In this document: positions 2,106 to 61,133 of the stretch, in pieces
How positions within the stretch are numbered: the first letter of the stretch is position 1
Layout of the letters: every line of letters starts with the position of its first letter
Source: a virus
DNA length: 64,000 nucleotides
Virus record (IMG/VR): IMGVR_UViG_3300032224_000679
Coordinates: 21,487-85,486 of that record
Strand: one strand, 5' to 3'
Translations under genes and position numbers: made by a program
Notes under the pieces: generated by a model
Database searches by the model: none
The model's input: only the letters and a program-made list of their open reading frames with translations
Told to the model about the DNA's origin: nothing

Positions 2106-5100
2106 ATGGCCATATCAGATACACAAAAAGTAGATTACTTATACAAGAAACTAGGTTACGGTGTAGCTAAAACTGACACTTCATCTGTCAAGAGTCCCAG
2201 TAACGAAGCCAATGCGAGCCCGTTACTGATTCGTGGTGATACATTGTGGGTCAACTCTGGCAACGTACCAGCATCCGCACCCAGTTCAAATACTAGCATT
2301 GTTGCAGTGTATACAGGAACTGCGGCAATTAAAACAGTCAACGATGGCACATCCAGTACTAACAGAACTTGGTTAACTAATTTATCCGACTGGATTGGTA
2401 GTGAATTTGGCGCAACATATCAACCCCGAGTTTGGGCAGCACCCGCCGCTACAGCCAATGCGGCAGCGTCTGGAACAAGACTATTTCCAGACGGCAGCGG
2501 CAACAATGACAGTTGGTTCTTTGATCCACAAGCTGGTATTTTAAACTTTGCAGATACTAGCGTACCAACAGCAGTCACGGGTAATGTGGTATTCATTGAA
2601 GGCTATAGGTACATTGGGCCAAAAGGCGTTGCCAATGCCACAGGAAATATTACGTTCAGTAACGTTACTATCACTAATAATTTTGCCAATGCAAATATTT
2701 TTATAACACCAACAGGCACTGGTCAATTAATTGTAAACAGTAATCTAACTGCAAATGCGCTGACAATCAACAACTCAGCTACCATTGGATCAACACTGGG
2801 TGTGACTGGTAACGTAACTGCTCCTTATTTTATTGGTAATATAATTGGTAATGTTTCGGGTAATCTTTCAGCAGCCGGGGCCAATACACAAGTCATGTTT
2901 AATGACGTTGGTACGATTGCAGGCAATACCGGATTAACTTTTAACAAACAAACTCAAGTTTTAAGTTTAACAGGAAATTTAGTTGCGTCAGGAATTACTG
3001 CCAATAATTCAATCACAGCAGGAACAACACTAAGTGCTGCTGGTGGTATACAGAATACTCCTATAGGTAACGTAACTGCTAGTTCAGGTCAATTTACCAC
3101 GTTAAGTGCGACAGGTAACGTAACTGGCGCTGCTTTAACAAGTAATGGAAGTATAACTGCGATTACCACGCTAAGTGCTCTTGGAGGCATACAAGCAACG
3201 CCCATTGGCAATGTTACTGCGTCAACAGGTCAATTTACTACTGTGTCCGCAACTGGTAACGTAACTGGTGCTGCATTGACCAGCAATGGATCAATTACAG
3301 CAATTACTTCGCTAAGTGCATTAGGTGGATTACAAGCAACACCTATAGGTAACGTTACTCCAAGTACAGCAATATTCACAAGTCAAAGCACCAGCGGCAA
3401 TGCTACTGTAAATGCTCTAACAGTTAACAACTCGGCTACAGTAGGCGGCACATTAGGTGTAGTTGGTACATTAACCGGAACAGCAATAACCACAACAGGC
3501 AATGTCACAGCCGCTGGACTAACTAGTAATGCAAGTATAACAGCAGGAACGACTATCAGTGCTCCTGCAGGTCTACAAGCAACTCCAATTGGTAATGTTA
3601 CCCCAAGTACAGCAACATTTACCAGTGCTATTGTCAGTGGAGCATTAAGTGTGGGCGGTAATGCTACAGTTAATGCACTGGCAACAAATGGTAGTGCAGT
3701 AATTAACACAACGTTACAGGCTATCGCAGGTATTCAGAACACACCAATTGGCAATTTAACACCTAGTACAGGTAACTTTACTACACTAAATGCTAGTTCA
3801 GGATTAACTGGCAGTGCATTGACAGTAAACGGTGTTGCTACTGTTGGGTCAACTTTAACAGTATCTGGCGCCACAACAGTTAACAGTTTAACAAGTAATG
3901 GCGCAGTCAGCGGCACAACTGCTCAATTTACAACAATTAATGGGTCAGGCAATGCAACCCTATCAGGACTAAATGTAAACAACAGTGCAACTATTGGCAC
4001 AACATTAAGTGCCAATGCAGGTATTCAAAATACAGCAATTGGTAATGTAACACCTAGTACTGGTAATTTTACTACATTAGGTACTACTGGTAATTTAACG
4101 GTGTCGCAGTTAACAGTTAATACCACTGCTACTGTTGGTACAACATTGGGTGTTGGCAGTAACATTACCGTTGGTGTGGGTACTGGTGGTAATATAACTG
4201 GTGCTAATTTAATATCAGCTAATTCATTTACTGCCGCAGTATCATTTAATGGACCTGTAAATGGGACATTGGGCTCAGCAGGCGGCAATACTGCTATTGT
4301 TACTACACTGAGTGCGACAGGTAATGTAACTGCGGCAGCAGTAACTAGTAACAGTAGCATTACCGCTGCCACTACAATAAGTGCTAATGCAGGTATTCAA
4401 AATACAGCAATTGGTAATGTTACACCTAATACTGGTAATTTTACTACACTAACAGCAAGTTCTGTATCAATTAGTGGAAATGCTATAGTTGGTAATTTAG
4501 ATGTATTGGGTAATGTAACTTATATTAATAGTACTATTACCACAATACTTGATCCAATCATTGAACTAAACACCAGTGCAAACGGTGCGCCATTAAGTGG
4601 CAGTGCTCCTTATGATTCAGGTATAAAAACACATTATTGGGATGGATCAGCTGACAGACAGTCATTCTTTGGTAGAGCAAATGATTCTGGATTCTTAGAA
4701 TATTATTCAAATGTAATCAGTGAGTCAGGTAATATCGTCACTGGTACATACGGAACTATTAAAACTGGTAATTTACTATTAACTGGTAATGCTACTATTG
4801 CAAGTACATTGAATGTGCAAGCAAACACCACAGTAAATGCTTTGACTGTTAATAACAGCGGAACATTTAATACTACGTTGAGTGCGCTCGGAGGCCTACA
4901 AGCAACACCAATTGGTAATGTTGCCCCAAGCACTGCATTGTTTACTTCAGTGGGTTCTAGCGGTAATGTCACAACCAGTGCATTAACAGTTAACAATTCA
5001 GCTACTATAGGATCATCTTTAGGAGTTGTAGGAACATTAACTGGTACAACTATTAATGCTGCGACATTTGGTAATACTAGTGCTGTGTTTACTGGCGCAA

Positions 5101-56987: not shown

Positions 56988-57429
56988 TAAGGTAGTAGCA
57001 GATCTTGGCAACATACCTGCGTTCATTAATTACTATGAAGATGAACTAGTAGAAGCCAAATACGACTGTGGAGTCAAAGGTAACTTAGAAAAGAACATTG
57101 CTGGCTTGCCTGGCTTAACTGAACACAGATTTAATCAATTACAAGAAATTGAAGCTGTATTAAACTATCTAAACATACAGTTACGTAGGATTCGTAAAAA
57201 ACACTTTCAAAAGTATTTGGAAAATTATCCCAGAGCGCTGACCAGTAGGGATGCTGAAAAGTATGTAGACGGCGAAGATGAAGTCATCGATTTTGAAACT
57301 ATCATCAACGAAGTTGCACTGGTACGTAATAAATGGTTAGGCCTACTTAAAGGTCTAGAAAGCAAAAACTTCATGTTGGGGCATGTGGCTAGACTCAGAA
57401 CCGCAGGCATGGAAGATATTACTCTATAA
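56977..57429 (+). CDS. uvsY: Recombination mediator UvsY
   Basis: RALTSRDAEKYVDGE, KGLESK...GH..RLRTAGMED. Confidence 0.85.
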   Translation: MWYNKVVADLGNIPAFINYYEDELVEAKYDCGVKGNLEKNIAGLPGLTEHRFNQLQEIEAVLNYLNIQLRRIRKKHFQKYLENYPRALTSRDAEKYVDGEDEVIDFETIINEVALVRNKWLGLLKGLESKNFMLGHVARLRTAGMEDITL

Positions 57430-57437
57430 GTATTGAT

Positions 57438-58196
57438 ATGAAAATTGTTGTAGTCAGCGGGGGATTTGACCCCTTACATTCCGGTCACATTGCTATGTTT
57501 AAATCTGCAAAAGCATTGGGCGATCGTTTATTAGTTGCAGTTAACAGTGATGCTTGGCTTGTTCGCAAAAAGGGCAGAGCATTTATGCCGTTGTTTGAAC
57601 GTACTGGTATCATAACTAACTTGTCCTGTGTAGATGAAATTGTCATGGGCTACGATGACAGCGACGGCTCCAGCATAGATGCGCTACGTAGAGTAAAAGA
57701 AAAATACCCCGACGATGAGATTATCTTTGCCAATGGCGGAGATCGCAATATGTTCAACATTCCAGAAATGGCTGTGGAAGGTGTAACTTGTAACTTTGGT
57801 ATCGGGGGAGTCCAAAAAGCTAACAGCAGTAGCTGGATACTGGAAGAATGGAAAGCACCCAAGACTGAACGAACATGGGGCCACTATAGAGTATTAAAAG
57901 AATACGGACCAACAGTCAAGCTCAAAGAACTTACAGTGGAACCTGGTCAACGTCTCAGTATGCAACGTCACGAAAAACGTGCAGAGCATTGGTTTGTGGC
58001 AGAAGGTACTGCCACAGTATACAGTATAGATTCCAGCACAGATGTTGAGCTATTGGGTACTTACGAACAGTTTCAGCATGTACATATTAACCGTACACAA
58101 TGGCATCAGTTATGCAACGAAACTGACGAGCCTTTGAAAATCATTGAAATACAGTACGGCGAAGACTGCGTTGAAACTGACATTGAGCGTCAGTAA
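57438..58196 (+). CDS. Cytidylyltransferase-like (HIGH) domain fused to a type II mannose-6-phosphate-isomerase-like cupin
   Basis: SGGFDPLHSGH, VNSD..L.RKKG, ANGGDR, NSSS; then R.WG.Y.VL, LSMQRH..RAEHW, IIEIQ.G..C.E.DIER. Confidence 0.85.
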   Translation: MKIVVVSGGFDPLHSGHIAMFKSAKALGDRLLVAVNSDAWLVRKKGRAFMPLFERTGIITNLSCVDEIVMGYDDSDGSSIDALRRVKEKYPDDEIIFANGGDRNMFNIPEMAVEGVTCNFGIGGVQKANSSSWILEEWKAPKTERTWGHYRVLKEYGPTVKLKELTVEPGQRLSMQRHEKRAEHWFVAEGTATVYSIDSSTDVELLGTYEQFQHVHINRTQWHQLCNETDEPLKIIEIQYGEDCVETDIERQ

Positions 58197-58282
58197 TAGT
58201 AGCGATACCCTTGGCGGTATGCTCGTGCTTGTTGCTCGCGATTGGCAATAATTGCCTTAACTACGCAATTTAAAAATTTCAT
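58190..58282 (-). CDS. Small hypothetical peptide (30 aa)
   Basis: MKFLNCVVKAIIANREQQARAYRQGYRYYY; purine-rich RBS, overlapping the stop of the upstream minus-strand gene. Confidence 0.45.
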   Translation of the reverse strand: MKFLNCVVKAIIANREQQARAYRQGYRYYY

Positions 58283-58443
58283 ATTAACCCTTCCTTTTGT
58301 TGATCGTATTGATATTGACGTTGTAGGTGCTCGAGATCGGCAGCGTTTTGTGGATTTTTGCTGGCAATGTAACGTTCCATTCTGCTTTGATAGTCGCTTT
58401 CGGGAAACATTTCTGCCAGGCGTTCTAGTAATGTTCTTAACAT
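58279..58443 (-). CDS. Small hypothetical protein (54 aa)
   Basis: AAGGA RBS and ATG at 58443; MLRTLLERLAEMFP... Confidence 0.6.
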   Translation of the reverse strand: MLRTLLERLAEMFPESDYQSRMERYIASKNPQNAADLEHLQRQYQYDQQKEGLI

Positions 58444-58544
58444 ATTTTTCCTTATCAGTGTTTCTACTGATATATTTATCATGCATTGCGACATTTGAAA
58501 CAATATCTAAATTAAAAATAAATACACAATAACCTAAAATAATC

Positions 58545-59774
58545 ATGACTGATATCCGCAAATTTATAGACATTGTTGCTGAAGATCCAGCAGATGTGCG
58601 ACAAGCAATCACTAAAAAAGTCGAAAAAATACCCGACGAAAGTGACCTAACAGACATCTTAAAATTTACCAACAAGTACAGCATTAAAAAAGATGTTGAA
58701 AAGTTTGCCACAGTAAGAGATTACAAAGGGCTGGTTAGTACTATATTCTTGCAAGCTCTAGCCAATGCAGAGTTAAGTGATGCTGAAGTTAAAAAATTCC
58801 TTAAGAAACTTAGCACTGATGGTATTTTGGATGAAAAGAAACTGCTGACTCCACGTAAAGTACATAGCTACGCAGAGCTAATTGATAAAGAATATCAGAA
58901 AACATTCAACGCAATTAAAGTTGATATCTTTGAAAAGATTGCTGGTAAGATTGGTGAAAAGGGTGATGTGGGTAAGGGCGAATACATGTTGGACATTATC
59001 AGTCCTACAGTTAATCGTCGTGGAGCTCCGGGCGACTTGGATATTGATGGTACTAAGATTGAACTTAAAGCTGGACAAAACGGACGTTTAGGTCCCGCAG
59101 GCAGTCAAGCACTGGTGGGACGTTTCGCTCGTGAATTTGCGCCTATTGTGCAAAAGATACAGCCCGATGTTAAAGTGCCAACATCCAACGATCAAATTTC
59201 GGATATTTTCAATCCTAAACTGAACATGAGTGCATTCACTGATTACTTTGACAACGACAGTAAAAAAGTCAAATTGGCGTTGAAAGCATTGTTACAGATG
59301 CATTATCCCAGTGTTAATGTCAATGACATAGTAAACAAAGTAGTTGGTAGCAATGGTGTTATAAACGGCAACGAGCTAAAGAAACAAATGCTTAAAAACA
59401 GTTTTGATGTTTATAAAGCAGACAAAGATTTTGATGGTGTAATTATCATGGACAGTGGTGTTACTGGATTCTTATATGTAAACAGTGGCGATGACTTAGC
59501 CGCAGTGGCTGATTCTTTGAGCGTAAGTTTTCCAAGTTGGACAGACACACAAGGTAACTGTATGAAAGTTACACTAACTGCTACAGCACTTAAATCAGCT
59601 GGTGCAGCCGCAGGTCTTGCACCCGCACCAAAAGCATCAAAGGTCAAAGATCCAGAAAAGTTGGCTGCACAAACACACAAAGTTTCTGGACTCAAACCGC
59701 AAGCGGCCAAAGCCGCCGCAAAATCTTTAGCAACCAAATCTAAAGAACCAAGTCCTTTACGTGCTCGCAGATAA
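58545..59774 (+). CDS. Late protein with a PD-(D/E)xK nuclease-like motif
   Basis: GKGEY...GDLDIDG.KIELK; N-terminus MTDIRKFIDIVAE; late promoter at 58518. Confidence 0.6.
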   Translation: MTDIRKFIDIVAEDPADVRQAITKKVEKIPDESDLTDILKFTNKYSIKKDVEKFATVRDYKGLVSTIFLQALANAELSDAEVKKFLKKLSTDGILDEKKLLTPRKVHSYAELIDKEYQKTFNAIKVDIFEKIAGKIGEKGDVGKGEYMLDIISPTVNRRGAPGDLDIDGTKIELKAGQNGRLGPAGSQALVGRFAREFAPIVQKIQPDVKVPTSNDQISDIFNPKLNMSAFTDYFDNDSKKVKLALKALLQMHYPSVNVNDIVNKVVGSNGVINGNELKKQMLKNSFDVYKADKDFDGVIIMDSGVTGFLYVNSGDDLAAVADSLSVSFPSWTDTQGNCMKVTLTATALKSAGAAAGLAPAPKASKVKDPEKLAAQTHKVSGLKPQAAKAAAKSLATKSKEPSPLRARR

Positions 59775-59777
59775 CTG

Positions 59778-59806
59778 TTGACACAAATTGCAATAGACTA
59801 TATAAT
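59778..59806 (+). promoter_or_regulatory. Consensus sigma70 promoter at the head of the tRNA island
   Basis: TTGACA-17 nt-TATAAT. Confidence 0.85.
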
Positions 59807-59817
59807 AGACACATGTT

Positions 59818-59894
59818 GCGCTTGTAGCTCAGTTGGTTAGAGCAGTGGACTCATAATCCATTGGTCGCGGGTTCAAGTCCCTCCGAGCGCACCA
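59818..59894 (+). tRNA. tRNA with CAU anticodon (Ile2-like, or elongator Met)
   Basis: Cloverleaf, loop CTCATAA, encoded CCA; body resembles bacterial Ile2. Confidence 0.9.
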
Positions 59895-59901
59895 AGAATT
59901 T

Positions 59902-59987
59902 GCCAGAGTGGTGGAATGGTATACACAGCAGACTTAAAATCTGCCGCCCGCAAGGGCATACGGGTTCGAGTCCCGTCTCTGGCACCA
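59902..59987 (+). tRNA. tRNA-Leu(UAA)
   Basis: Loop CTTAAAA, long variable arm, CCA. Confidence 0.95.
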
Positions 59988-60032
59988 AACGTAAAACAAA
60001 ATAGTTAATTTTATCAATATTACCAAAGGTAG

Positions 60033-60061
60033 TTGACAAGAAAGACTAAATAACTTACAAT
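60033..60061 (+). promoter_or_regulatory. Sigma70 promoter of the leader-peptide transcript
   Basis: TTGACA-17 nt-TACAAT; the spacer also contains TAAATA. Confidence 0.8.
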
Positions 60062-60071
60062 AGAAACTGTT

Positions 60072-60203
60072 ATGAAAATACAAAGATCCTTACATTCGTT
60101 TATTTGCATAGCCAAACAGGCAGGCGTTATGCCCGCTTATTGGTCAGCGATTAATCTAAGTAATGATCGCACACCAGAGGAATCCGGGGTCCGGGAAGGA
60201 TAA
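60072..60203 (+). CDS. Putative attenuator leader peptide (43 aa)
   Basis: MKIQRSLHSFICIAKQAGVMPAYWSAINLSNDRTPEESGVREG; ATG lies 10 nt after the -10 box; the 3' codons overlap the antiterminator strand. Confidence 0.65.
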   Translation: MKIQRSLHSFICIAKQAGVMPAYWSAINLSNDRTPEESGVREG

Positions 60204-60230
60204 CAAGTACAAAAATACTTTAACTTCTAA

Positions 60231-60265
60231 GGACCCCAGGCATAAACACCCTGGGGTTTTTGTTT
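60231..60265 (+). terminator. Intrinsic terminator with a competing antiterminator
   Basis: accccagg/cctggggt stem plus TTTTTGTTT; its 5' arm ggacccc is also complementary to ggggtcc at 60186-60192. Confidence 0.85.
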
Positions 60266-60280
60266 ATGTAATGAGGAAAT

Positions 60281-60439
60281 ATGAGAATAGGTAATAACAA
60301 TAGACAACATGAGTTTATTCGACAGCATACGCTAACACAGGAACAACGGCAACGTTTGATCCAAGATAAGTTAGAACGTGCTAGGCAAATTGCTCAAGCA
60401 GTTGTAAAGCGTGAGGTGGCTCTTCAAAGTCGTCGATGA
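60281..60439 (+). CDS. Small basic helical protein (52 aa) immediately downstream of the attenuator
   Basis: GAGGA RBS; MRIGNNNRQHEFIRQHTLTQEQRQRLIQDKLERARQIAQAVVKREVALQSRR. Confidence 0.6.
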   Translation: MRIGNNNRQHEFIRQHTLTQEQRQRLIQDKLERARQIAQAVVKREVALQSRR

Positions 60440-60456
60440 CCGCAAAGTGTGAATAT

Positions 60457-60688
60457 GTGGAAACGAGGTCCACGTCCCGAACTTAAAACATGGGACAAAC
60501 GGGCGGACAGGATACATGAACGTGTGGCGAAAACGCACTTAGTAAGACTCCTGGGTAGGGTACTAACCCTATCATATCCTGTGGCAACACAGGGTATTCT
60601 AAAATGTATCAGATGACCAATACTACTTGCTCTCTTGACGAGTTCGGAGCCTCTTGTGTACACAAGCCCTGGTGCGTTTTAGAATACC
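60457..60688 (+). ncRNA. Putative structured ncRNA of unknown class
   Basis: Series of hairpins plus a 20-bp stem 60593-60612/60669-60688 containing G-U pairs. Confidence 0.5.
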
Positions 60689-60696
60689 AAATATAC

Positions 60697-60725
60697 TTGA
60701 CTGTCAACGAGTTATAGTATATAAT
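60697..60725 (+). promoter_or_regulatory. Sigma70 promoter
   Basis: TTGACT-17 nt-TATAAT. Confidence 0.75.
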
Positions 60726-60743
60726 ACGTTTTTTAAGGCAAAT

Positions 60744-60959
60744 ATGAAACATCCTCACGTTATGATTGATACAGACAAATGTGTTACTAACATTGGTAAC
60801 AGATTTGAATTAATTCTTGTTGCCAGTATTAGAGCAAGAGAACTTAGTAGAAAAACTCATACAGCAAAGGTTGTTACCCATAGTAAATCTATTGTGGCAA
60901 CACTGCAAGAAATTGAGGAAGGCCATATTGGTCGAGAGTACTTGAAAAAAGTTAGGTAA
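60744..60959 (+). CDS. rpoZ: RNA polymerase omega subunit homologue
   Basis: IGNRFELILVASIRAREL...K.IV.TL.EI..G.IG.E.LKKV; start taken as ATG 60744. Confidence 0.85.
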   Translation: MKHPHVMIDTDKCVTNIGNRFELILVASIRARELSRKTHTAKVVTHSKSIVATLQEIEEGHIGREYLKKVR

Positions 60960-60966
60960 GCAACAT

Positions 60967-61041
60967 TCCCTGGTAGCTCAGAGGTAGAGCAGCAGACTGT
61001 TAATTTGTTGGTCGGTGGTTCGAGCCCACCCCGGGGAGCCA
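60967..61041 (+). tRNA. tRNA-Asn(GUU)
   Basis: Loop CTGTTAA, G73, CCA. Confidence 0.95.
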
Positions 61042-61047
61042 AGTTTT

Positions 61048-61104
61048 AGGATACTAACAGCAAATTCAAAAATTTCACTGTTAATGAAACCAAAATAGTA
61101 TCCT
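61048..61104 (+). ncRNA. CAGCAA-stem RNA 1 carrying an Asn(GUU)-type anticodon stem-loop
   Basis: aggatacta/tagtatcct stem, ACAGCAA, TTTCA-CTGTTAA-TGAAA. Confidence 0.7.
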
Positions 61105-61133
61105 GTTGTATTTTGAGTGATAAGTAAGAACAT

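Follow-up and report, generated by a model that had tools for sequence, protein, structure and literature searches.

An omega gene in a phage tRNA island

The DNA analysed here, which we call the window, is 64,000 nucleotides long and forms the last 64 kb of an 85.5-kb virus record in IMG/VR whose completeness is estimated at 24%. Near its end lies a short open reading frame that encodes a homologue of RpoZ, the omega subunit of RNA polymerase. The frame stands within an island of tRNA genes, and the features to which we refer throughout are as follows.

59778-59806, plus strand: sigma70-type promoter TTGACA-17-TATAAT, 12 of 12 consensus positions, preceding tRNA-Met
59818-63982, plus strand: tRNA island with 16 tRNA genes found by ARAGORN and one found by Rfam only (63179-63259), reaching the end of the contig
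60033-60061, plus strand: sigma70-type promoter TTGACA-17-TACAAT, 11 of 12 consensus positions, preceding a conserved stretch at 60112-60506
60697-60725, plus strand: sigma70-type promoter TTGACT-17-TATAAT, 11 of 12 consensus positions, for omega and the downstream tRNAs
60735-60738, plus strand: Shine-Dalgarno sequence AAGG, 5 nt 5' of the ATG, read off the sequence
60744-60959, plus strand: coding sequence of the phage omega (RpoZ) homologue, 71 amino acids plus stop, with ATG at 60744 and TAA at 60957-60959
60744-60770, plus strand: N-terminal residues 1-9 (MKHPHVMID), alignment offset 4
60777-60929, plus strand: conserved omega core, residues 12-62, covering Pfam profile positions 1-51 of 53
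60967-61041, plus strand: tRNA-Asn(GTT), beginning 7 nt past the omega stop codon with no terminator between

A preliminary description of this locus had presented the gene as a phage-encoded omega with a clear omega core and the N-terminus MKHPHVMIDT, lacking the MAR motif, served by its own sigma70 promoter and placed directly upstream of tRNA-Asn in the tRNA island. All of these points held up, on the evidence reported in the following sections; the N-terminus, for example, is confirmed by the translation of the reading frame. This omega is new in three ways: it belongs to a phage, it is set in a tRNA operon, and it has no MAR at its N-terminus.

Identity and start of the omega homologue

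The reading frame translates as MKHPHVMIDTDKCVTNIGNRFELILVASIRARELSRKTHTAKVVTHSKSIVATLQEIEEGHIGREYLKKVR, with LKKVR at its C-terminal end. Both of the omega core motifs, G-N-R-F/Y..L-V-x-A..R-A-R and L-x-E-I-x-x-G, are present in the window protein, which carries them as IGNRF-LILVASIRAREL and TLQEIEEG; residues 18-34 read GNRFELILVASIRAREL, and residues 54-60 read LQEIEEG. The protein scores 45.3 bits against the Pfam family PF01192 (RNA_pol_Rpb6; cut-off 26, E = 8.6e-12) and 37.7 bits against the NCBIfam equivalog TIGR00690 (rpoZ; cut-off 23.6). Since both scores exceed the curated cut-offs, the match lies far above chance. A sequence search of the PDB with the window protein returned omega chains only. 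When residues 11-67 are aligned with the E. coli and Vibrio omegas of solved polymerase structures, the offset is a constant 4 residues, and the core aligns to residues 7-64 of E. coli omega.

The predicted fold agrees with the profiles, omega being a helical bundle that wraps around beta-prime. An AlphaFold model built with 43 homologues has a mean pLDDT of 80.8 and consists of four helices, and in a Foldseek comparison against the PDB all 50 matches listed are omega chains or omega within RNA polymerase complexes, with TM-scores of 0.56-0.72. The associated E-values are all above 0.001, because the protein is so small. By profile, motifs and predicted fold, the window reading frame is confirmed as a member of the omega family, and we are highly confident that its product is a genuine, functional phage omega.

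We also considered a start at the internal ATG (M7) and rejected it. That codon has no Shine-Dalgarno sequence, whereas the first ATG has one, and the corresponding methionine is missing in the relatives P0003 and P0007. The ATG at 60744 is therefore the likely start.

Phage origin of the contig

The record carries phage genes for a tail sheath, a tail tube, a sheath stabiliser, a large terminase and a gp32-like single-stranded DNA-binding protein, together with a T4-type major capsid protein, Gp23 (E = 1.6e-98). Gp23 is also found in the four omega-bearing relatives examined. The omega-carrying genome is that of an uncultured T4-like giant lake phage.

It is important, nevertheless, to ask whether host DNA might have been misassembled onto a phage contig, or whether the gene might be a recently captured host rpoZ in decay. 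The window ends in a repeat-rich tRNA island, where assemblies break. The run that holds 96% of the stretch is probably the source sample; its contigs agree with 58500-59861, 59919-60475 and 60448-61161 at every position, but 57 nt within tRNA genes are left uncovered. However, two lake-water studies from other years contain contigs about 93% identical that span 59980-61004 and cover the promoter, omega and the start of tRNA-Asn, so the same order has been assembled again elsewhere; the differences within their reading frames correspond to the P0002 protein variant. Two of these four relatives are near-complete (345 and 356 kb, 94-96% complete), and each holds its single copy of omega far from the genome ends, near 264 kb. 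Moreover, the identity to any cellular omega found is at most 54%, the gmk-rpoZ-spoT context of cellular genes is absent around the window omega, and dN/dS in the viral family is about 0.13. Because both the lake contigs and the near-complete relatives carry omega, misassembly or host contamination is excluded for practical purposes, and we regard misassembly and recent capture, taken together, as extremely improbable.

Promoters and transcript layout

The window contains only four sites of the form TTGAC-N17-19-TAnAAT in its 64 kb, and three of them cluster in a single kilobase where the tRNA island begins. Across the viral loci such sites are extremely strand-biased: in 86 loci, amounting to 698 kb, we counted 275 such sites on the strand of omega and the tRNAs as against 4 on the opposite strand. 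At the omega promoter the discriminator 3' of the -10 element is AT-rich (ACGTTTT), and in phage promoters the seven bases 3' of the -10 hexamer have a GC content of 0.23, compared with 0.41 across the loci.

The window omega has its own promoter and is separated from the upstream tRNA by 756 nt. It is the leader reading frame of a transcript that runs on through tRNA-Asn, Leu, Gly, Met, Val and Pro, and tRNA-Asn is the first tRNA co-transcribed with it. The 11 of 12 consensus match of the promoter, the 7-nt gap to tRNA-Asn and the 16-17 tRNAs on the same strand agree with the arrangement given in the preliminary description. An Rfam search of positions 57000-64000 returned nothing but tRNAs above gathering scores. 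ARAGORN additionally called a permuted tmRNA at 62754-63313, overlapping tRNA-Tyr and tRNA-Asp; with an Rfam tmRNA match absent, this call is probably a false positive, and the extra tRNA that Rfam places at 63179-63259 falls within it.

Downstream of the promoter at 60033-60061, and ahead of that of omega, the stretch 60112-60506 shares conserved DNA sequence with further phage loci that carry omega (68% over 419 nt with L081:736-1146, and 80-92% with pieces of L038 and L040). A small reading frame at 60281-60439 matches L081 too (tblastn, E = 7e-8). The predicted fold of 60068-60700 has z = -2.5, and a 20-nt inverted repeat (60593-60612 and 60669-60688) lies just 5' of the omega promoter. 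The conserved stretch has no match in Rfam; it may code for a structured RNA, for a small protein or for both.

A family of viral omegas linked to tRNA genes

A scan of IMG/VR with the window protein found seven loci at 52-59% identity, and a scan with a narrower alignment (A2) found at least 478 stretches encoding relatives, the best 80 of which were kept. A profile-free, exhaustive search of 1.84 billion representatives returned 259 clusters at E <= 0.001, and many of these show an N-terminal read-through that resembles translated tRNA 3' ends. Several viral members of the family are already labelled omega by the automatic annotation of JGI, while no PHROGs family matches the window protein.

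In all but one of the 87 viral loci examined we find tRNA genes, all of them on the strand of omega, and the viral omega usually lies between two tRNA genes. Measured from the assigned start codons, the upstream tRNA ends a median of 23.5 nt before the ATG, and the next tRNA follows the stop codon at a median distance of 7 nt; this downstream tRNA begins no more than 30 nt past the stop in 51 of 65 unique viral omega genes. The identity of the flanking tRNAs varies by lineage (Met, Arg or Ile upstream; Val, Pro, Gly, Arg or Cys downstream). Thus, the linkage between omega and tRNA genes has outlived the reshuffling of the islands. A distance of 14-24 nt from tRNA to ATG, furthermore, leaves no space for a promoter, and so in most of the relatives omega must be cut from a tRNA precursor.

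The viral omega genes have a median pairwise dN/dS of 0.13, and the ratio ranges from 0 to 0.29 among the 12 closest pairs listed (dS 0.10-0.23). The viral omegas are under purifying selection.

We searched 50,697 GenBank phage records by tblastn with the family members P0001, P0029 and P0013, and the matches were to contaminating or mislabelled bacterial DNA only; among these records we found no isolated phage carrying this omega. Two records named 'Acinetobacter phage MD-2021a' (CAKLQH020000003.1 and CAKLQF020000004.1; L001) are pieces of bacterial chromosome, with pil genes, ispH and gmk-rpoZ-spoT on their contigs. Two Campylobacter phage records (MG065691.1 and MG065686.1) carry an enterobacterial-type omega, which suggests contamination, and the matches also include Salmonella contigs. 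A full-text search of the literature found no paper discussing a phage-encoded omega, and omega goes unmentioned in two major comparative studies of jumbo and huge phages.

Phylogeny of viral and cellular omegas

We inferred a maximum likelihood tree of 155 omegas from 76 alignment columns. Because there are only 76 columns, the tree is poorly resolved inside. One split, however, has an SH-aLRT value of 99: it separates 65 viral and 17 metagenomic omegas from 68 cellular and 5 metagenomic ones. An omega phylogeny had been suggested in the preliminary description as a check, and it places all of the viral omegas on one side of this split.

The viral side comprises two groups. One has the MAR start or a decayed version of it (L006, L008, L009, L007 and the 'MARITSE' type). 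The other consists of 64 rows without MAR and holds both the subclade of the window omega (P0002-P0007 and L003) and a clade of 58 sequences that start M..LSRG[PT]x[IV]DTEKCV, which we call the SRGP clade (SH-aLRT 98). The window omega pairs with P0002 (SH-aLRT 95), then with P0006 and L003; unlike the SRGP clade, its subclade has neither the SRGP motif nor an extra Gly before NRF. The simplest reading of the tree would be a single ancient capture of omega from a proteobacterium. This reading falls short of a demonstration, because the cellular sample is biased to gamma- and betaproteobacteria and the root of the tree is not known.

When one genome per prokaryotic species is scanned, the best cellular match to the window omega is a 67-amino-acid omega from Comamonadaceae at 54% identity (L090), in the usual gmk-rpoZ-spoT context; at the window locus the order is instead promoter, omega, tRNA-Asn. 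The scan otherwise gave ordinary proteobacterial rpoZ genes. Among 401 evenly drawn Pseudomonadota genomes, nothing exceeds 62% identity to P0013, a MAR-bearing omega of the viral side. The best cellular matches, the Comamonadaceae omega (54%) and ordinary gammaproteobacterial omegas, do not single out a host, and L170-L172 are omegas of the enterobacterial type, 90-91 amino acids long.

The short length and the LKKV ending of the window omega had been taken to resemble betaproteobacterial omega. The likeness stands as regards these two features and the 67-amino-acid Comamonadaceae match, which has the same short form ending soon past LKKV. A specific betaproteobacterial affinity, on the other hand, is absent from the tree.

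Loss of the MAR start and a possible loss of ppGpp site 1

Omega residues 2-5, along with other omega residues and with R417 and K615 of beta-prime, coordinate the phosphates of ppGpp at site 1, and for RNA polymerase with an omega lacking residues 2-5 the apparent Kd for ppGpp rises above 100 uM (PMC7676912). These data bear out the earlier statement that the MAR residues contribute to ppGpp site 1. The MAR motif is named in a passage of PMC6416229 that cites Hauryliuk et al. (2015).

A site-1-competent omega binds ppGpp together with R362, R417, K615, I619 and D622 of beta-prime, and its N-terminus M-A-R-x-T is not found in the window protein. Its first nine residues are MKHPHVMID, and the alignment places V6-M7-I8-D9 at the positions of A2-R3-V4-T5 of E. 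coli omega, behind five extra residues. The loss of MAR extends across the whole clade to which the window omega belongs. The MAR start is present in 77 of 78 cellular omegas (76 directly and one from a GTG start, the exception being an endosymbiont) but in just 3 of the 65 viral rows. On the tree, MAR state must have changed six times or more, only once on the cellular side, and on the viral side MAR has been lost at least five times.

The individual positions have fared differently. In cellular omegas anchored on NRF, M1 is conserved in 100%, A2 in 98%, R3 in 98% and T5 in 100%. In the window subclade residues 1-8 vary: the commonest residue accounts for 54% at the A2 position and for 36% at the R3 position, while 90% have Asp at the T5 position. 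In the SRGP clade no N-terminal position varies more than that of R3 (commonest residue 22%), the T5 position is Asp in 89%, and a new S-R-G triplet just upstream is 91% conserved at each residue. Across 58 unique viral omegas the entire motif S-R-G-[PT]-x-[IV]-D-T-E-K-C shows strong conservation, and the window omega carries the D-T-D-K-C part only. Such a pattern suggests that the SRGP motif may represent a gained function or contact, and not a simple loss.

Since residues 2-5 are needed for binding and are replaced here, we infer that normal binding of ppGpp at site 1 would be lost in a polymerase containing the phage omega. A loss of site 1 in the window omega is plausible on this comparison, in which the site-1 contacts are those of E. 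coli and may differ in the host. Three of the viral omegas (L006, L008 and L009) keep MAR within tRNA islands; carrying an omega, therefore, does not require that MAR be lost.

The probable polymerase partner and proposed effect of the phage omega

T4 uses the core enzyme of its host throughout infection, and T4-like phages are not known to encode an RNA polymerase. In two near-complete and three partial omega-bearing relatives, neither the beta-prime domain PF04997 nor sigma70 region 2 gave a match. Profiles for AsiA (PF09010), RpbA (PF10789) and T7-type RNA polymerase (PF00940) matched nothing, but since the control genomes were equally silent these blanks carry no weight. Because promoters of sigma70 consensus pack the islands, the host sigma70 holoenzyme is the likely transcriber of omega, and it is most likely what omega joins.

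We propose the following course of events. The host sigma70 holoenzyme would transcribe omega early, as the leader reading frame of a tRNA operon, and tRNA processing, with an RNase P cut 7 nt past the stop codon, would free a short omega mRNA. Because the beta-prime-binding core is kept, the phage omega should occupy the omega site on the host core, either filling empty sites or competing with the host omega. The resulting polymerase would be expected to lack a working ppGpp site 1, because the N-terminus differs at the phosphate-coordinating residues. As a result, the pool of RNA polymerase would remain assembled and active while responding less to the alarmone, and initiation at phage promoters would be a less likely target of the effect than elongation and pausing, or than activity as a whole. 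Of these steps, we infer that the protein binds beta-prime, that it exchanges with the host omega, that ppGpp binding is lost and that the phage benefits; what the data show is the homology, the fold, the phage origin, the promoter, the tRNA linkage, purifying selection and the absence of MAR throughout the clade. The complete chain, in which the phage omega joins the host polymerase and lacks a working site 1, we put forward tentatively, with a degree of belief slightly short of even. The exchange of omega on polymerase already assembled, after host shut-off, is uncertain.

The preliminary description took the argument one step further and suggested that an exchange of omega could blunt the stringent response and so keep phage tRNA transcription on. 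Our results neither show nor exclude such an effect. Several of them would favour a role for ppGpp: the repeated erosion of MAR, the conserved change of charge at the T5 position, the co-expression of omega with stable RNA genes, the MazG genes in both near-complete relatives, and the TraR/DksA-type gene downstream of omega in 9 of the 87 loci. TraR acts at the secondary channel, the other place of ppGpp action. Counting against the idea are the retention of MAR in L006, L008 and L009, the AT-rich discriminators, the dominance of site 2 in E. coli and the new SRGP motif of the largest phage clade, with its hint of a gained contact. Stringently inhibited rRNA and tRNA promoters have GC-rich discriminators; the discriminators of the phage are AT-rich, and therefore its tRNA promoters should need little protection from ppGpp at initiation. 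In E. coli the effect of site 2 with DksA on initiation far exceeds that of site 1, and loss of omega causes a modest lag only (PMC7676912).

The main rival reading is that the phage does nothing more than supply extra omega, so that the host polymerase stays intact, stable and charged with sigma70 through a long infection once host gene expression has ceased. The N-terminus would then have drifted as constraint relaxed, to no regulatory end. The MAR-bearing L006, L008 and L009 branch nearest to the cellular omegas, which argues that omega was of use to phages before they gave up MAR; residues 1-8 are variable in the window subclade, and strong sigma70 promoters drive the gene together with stable RNA genes. 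Omega is described as a factor for both the assembly and the stability of beta-prime, and recent preprints tie it to stabilisation of the transcribing RNA polymerase and to polymerase condensates at rRNA synthesis (PMC7700224, PMC13192885 and PMC13060160). Drift, however, is difficult to reconcile with a start that 77 of 78 cellular omegas keep and that the viral side has lost five times or more, or with a T5 position that has become a conserved acidic residue. Nor does it account for the newly conserved N-terminus of the SRGP clade. We rate plain supply as a possible but rather unlikely explanation.

That newly conserved N-terminus, strongly maintained in 58 unique viral omegas, would fit an omega whose rebuilt, surface-exposed end beside beta-prime recruits a phage factor, or blocks the docking of a host regulator or defence. 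Omega is known to dock GafA, a regulator of the phage-like element RcGTA (PMC9638019), and the TraR/DksA-type zinc-finger gene that follows omega in 9 of 87 loci could point the same way. Yet the window subclade has no SRGP motif and its N-terminus is variable, and beside the window omega there is no conserved partner gene, its neighbours being a tRNA gene, a promoter and the conserved stretch; we consider a role as adaptor or shield improbable. Returning to our preferred reading, in which the phage omega joins the host polymerase without a working site 1, it might be extended to a general strategy. T4-like jumbo phages of lakes and other waters would then routinely swap the omega of the host polymerase, removing site 1, adding a docking motif in the SRGP clade and a TraR-like partner in some lineages, and the polymerase would be uncoupled from starvation signalling during tRNA and early expression. 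So broad a claim is speculative, and in our judgement doubtful; if true, it would describe a widespread kind of phage takeover, by substitution of a subunit, that has so far gone unrecognised.

Relation to known systems

The window omega shares with bacterial RpoZ (for example E. coli omega, 10ma_K and 4jkr) the family profile, the core motifs IGNRF..LVxA..RAR and L.EIEEG, and the predicted four-helix fold. It differs from bacterial RpoZ in being encoded by a phage, in a tRNA operon as opposed to gmk-rpoZ-spoT, and in having MKHPHVMID in place of MAR..T; unlike the sampled cellular omegas, it falls on the viral side of the split. The other omegas of T4-like jumbo phages belong to the same family, lie between tRNAs of the same strand, have sigma70-type promoters and, with few exceptions, lack MAR.

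The best functional analogue is the E. coli omega that lacks residues 2-5, a site-1-null laboratory mutant (Ross et al. 2013, as summarised in PMC7676912). As that summary presents the mutant, in both proteins the phosphate-coordinating residues are missing or replaced and the beta-prime-binding core is intact, whereas the window omega is natural, has five extra residues and carries Asp at the T5 position.

Other phage measures likewise bear on the control of ppGpp, among them TraR/DksA-like proteins, MazG, the HD alarmone hydrolases of jumbo phages (PMC7824862) and the T7 portal protein Gp8, which inhibits RelA/SpoT (bioRxiv 10.64898/2026.01.27.700999). These act on the alarmone, on its synthetases or at the secondary channel, whereas a phage omega would replace a subunit of the polymerase itself. 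AsiA, RpbA and Alc of T4, Gp2 of T7 and P7 of Xp10 are, like the window omega as proposed here, small, made early and able to retune the host polymerase, but they are phage inventions without homology to any subunit, while the window omega is a true subunit homologue. Phages retune the host polymerase by small binding proteins, covalent modification and sigma factors. For a phage to bring its own version of a genuine core-associated subunit would be a different principle, the swap of a part.

The family comprises hundreds of viral contigs under purifying selection, is tightly linked to tRNA operons, and is absent from PHROGs and from the isolated-phage records searched. It offers a natural experiment on the roles of omega and of ppGpp site 1, which are debated even in E. 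coli. In addition, an mRNA flanked by tRNA genes provides a compact case of mRNA ends that are probably set by tRNA processing.

Neighbouring genes in related phages

The zinc-finger reading frame of TraR/DksA type (CxxC-x17-CxxC) lies 3' of omega, on the same strand, in one subclade that accounts for all 9 of the 87 loci with this gene (L024, L026, L037, L039, L043, L044, L045, L049 and L052), at about 0.1-3 kb downstream. The corresponding frame of one near-complete relative (G002:C1:261361-261465) matches PF01258 with 46 bits. No reading frame of this type was found in the 85-kb record of the window itself. A MazG-family reading frame occurs in both near-complete relatives (G001:C1:303051-303281 and G002:C1:293504-293737). 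Finally, the tRNA island of a related phage, L003, contains genes for a fatty-acid-desaturase-like protein (1891-2661) and an acyl carrier protein (3453-3740).
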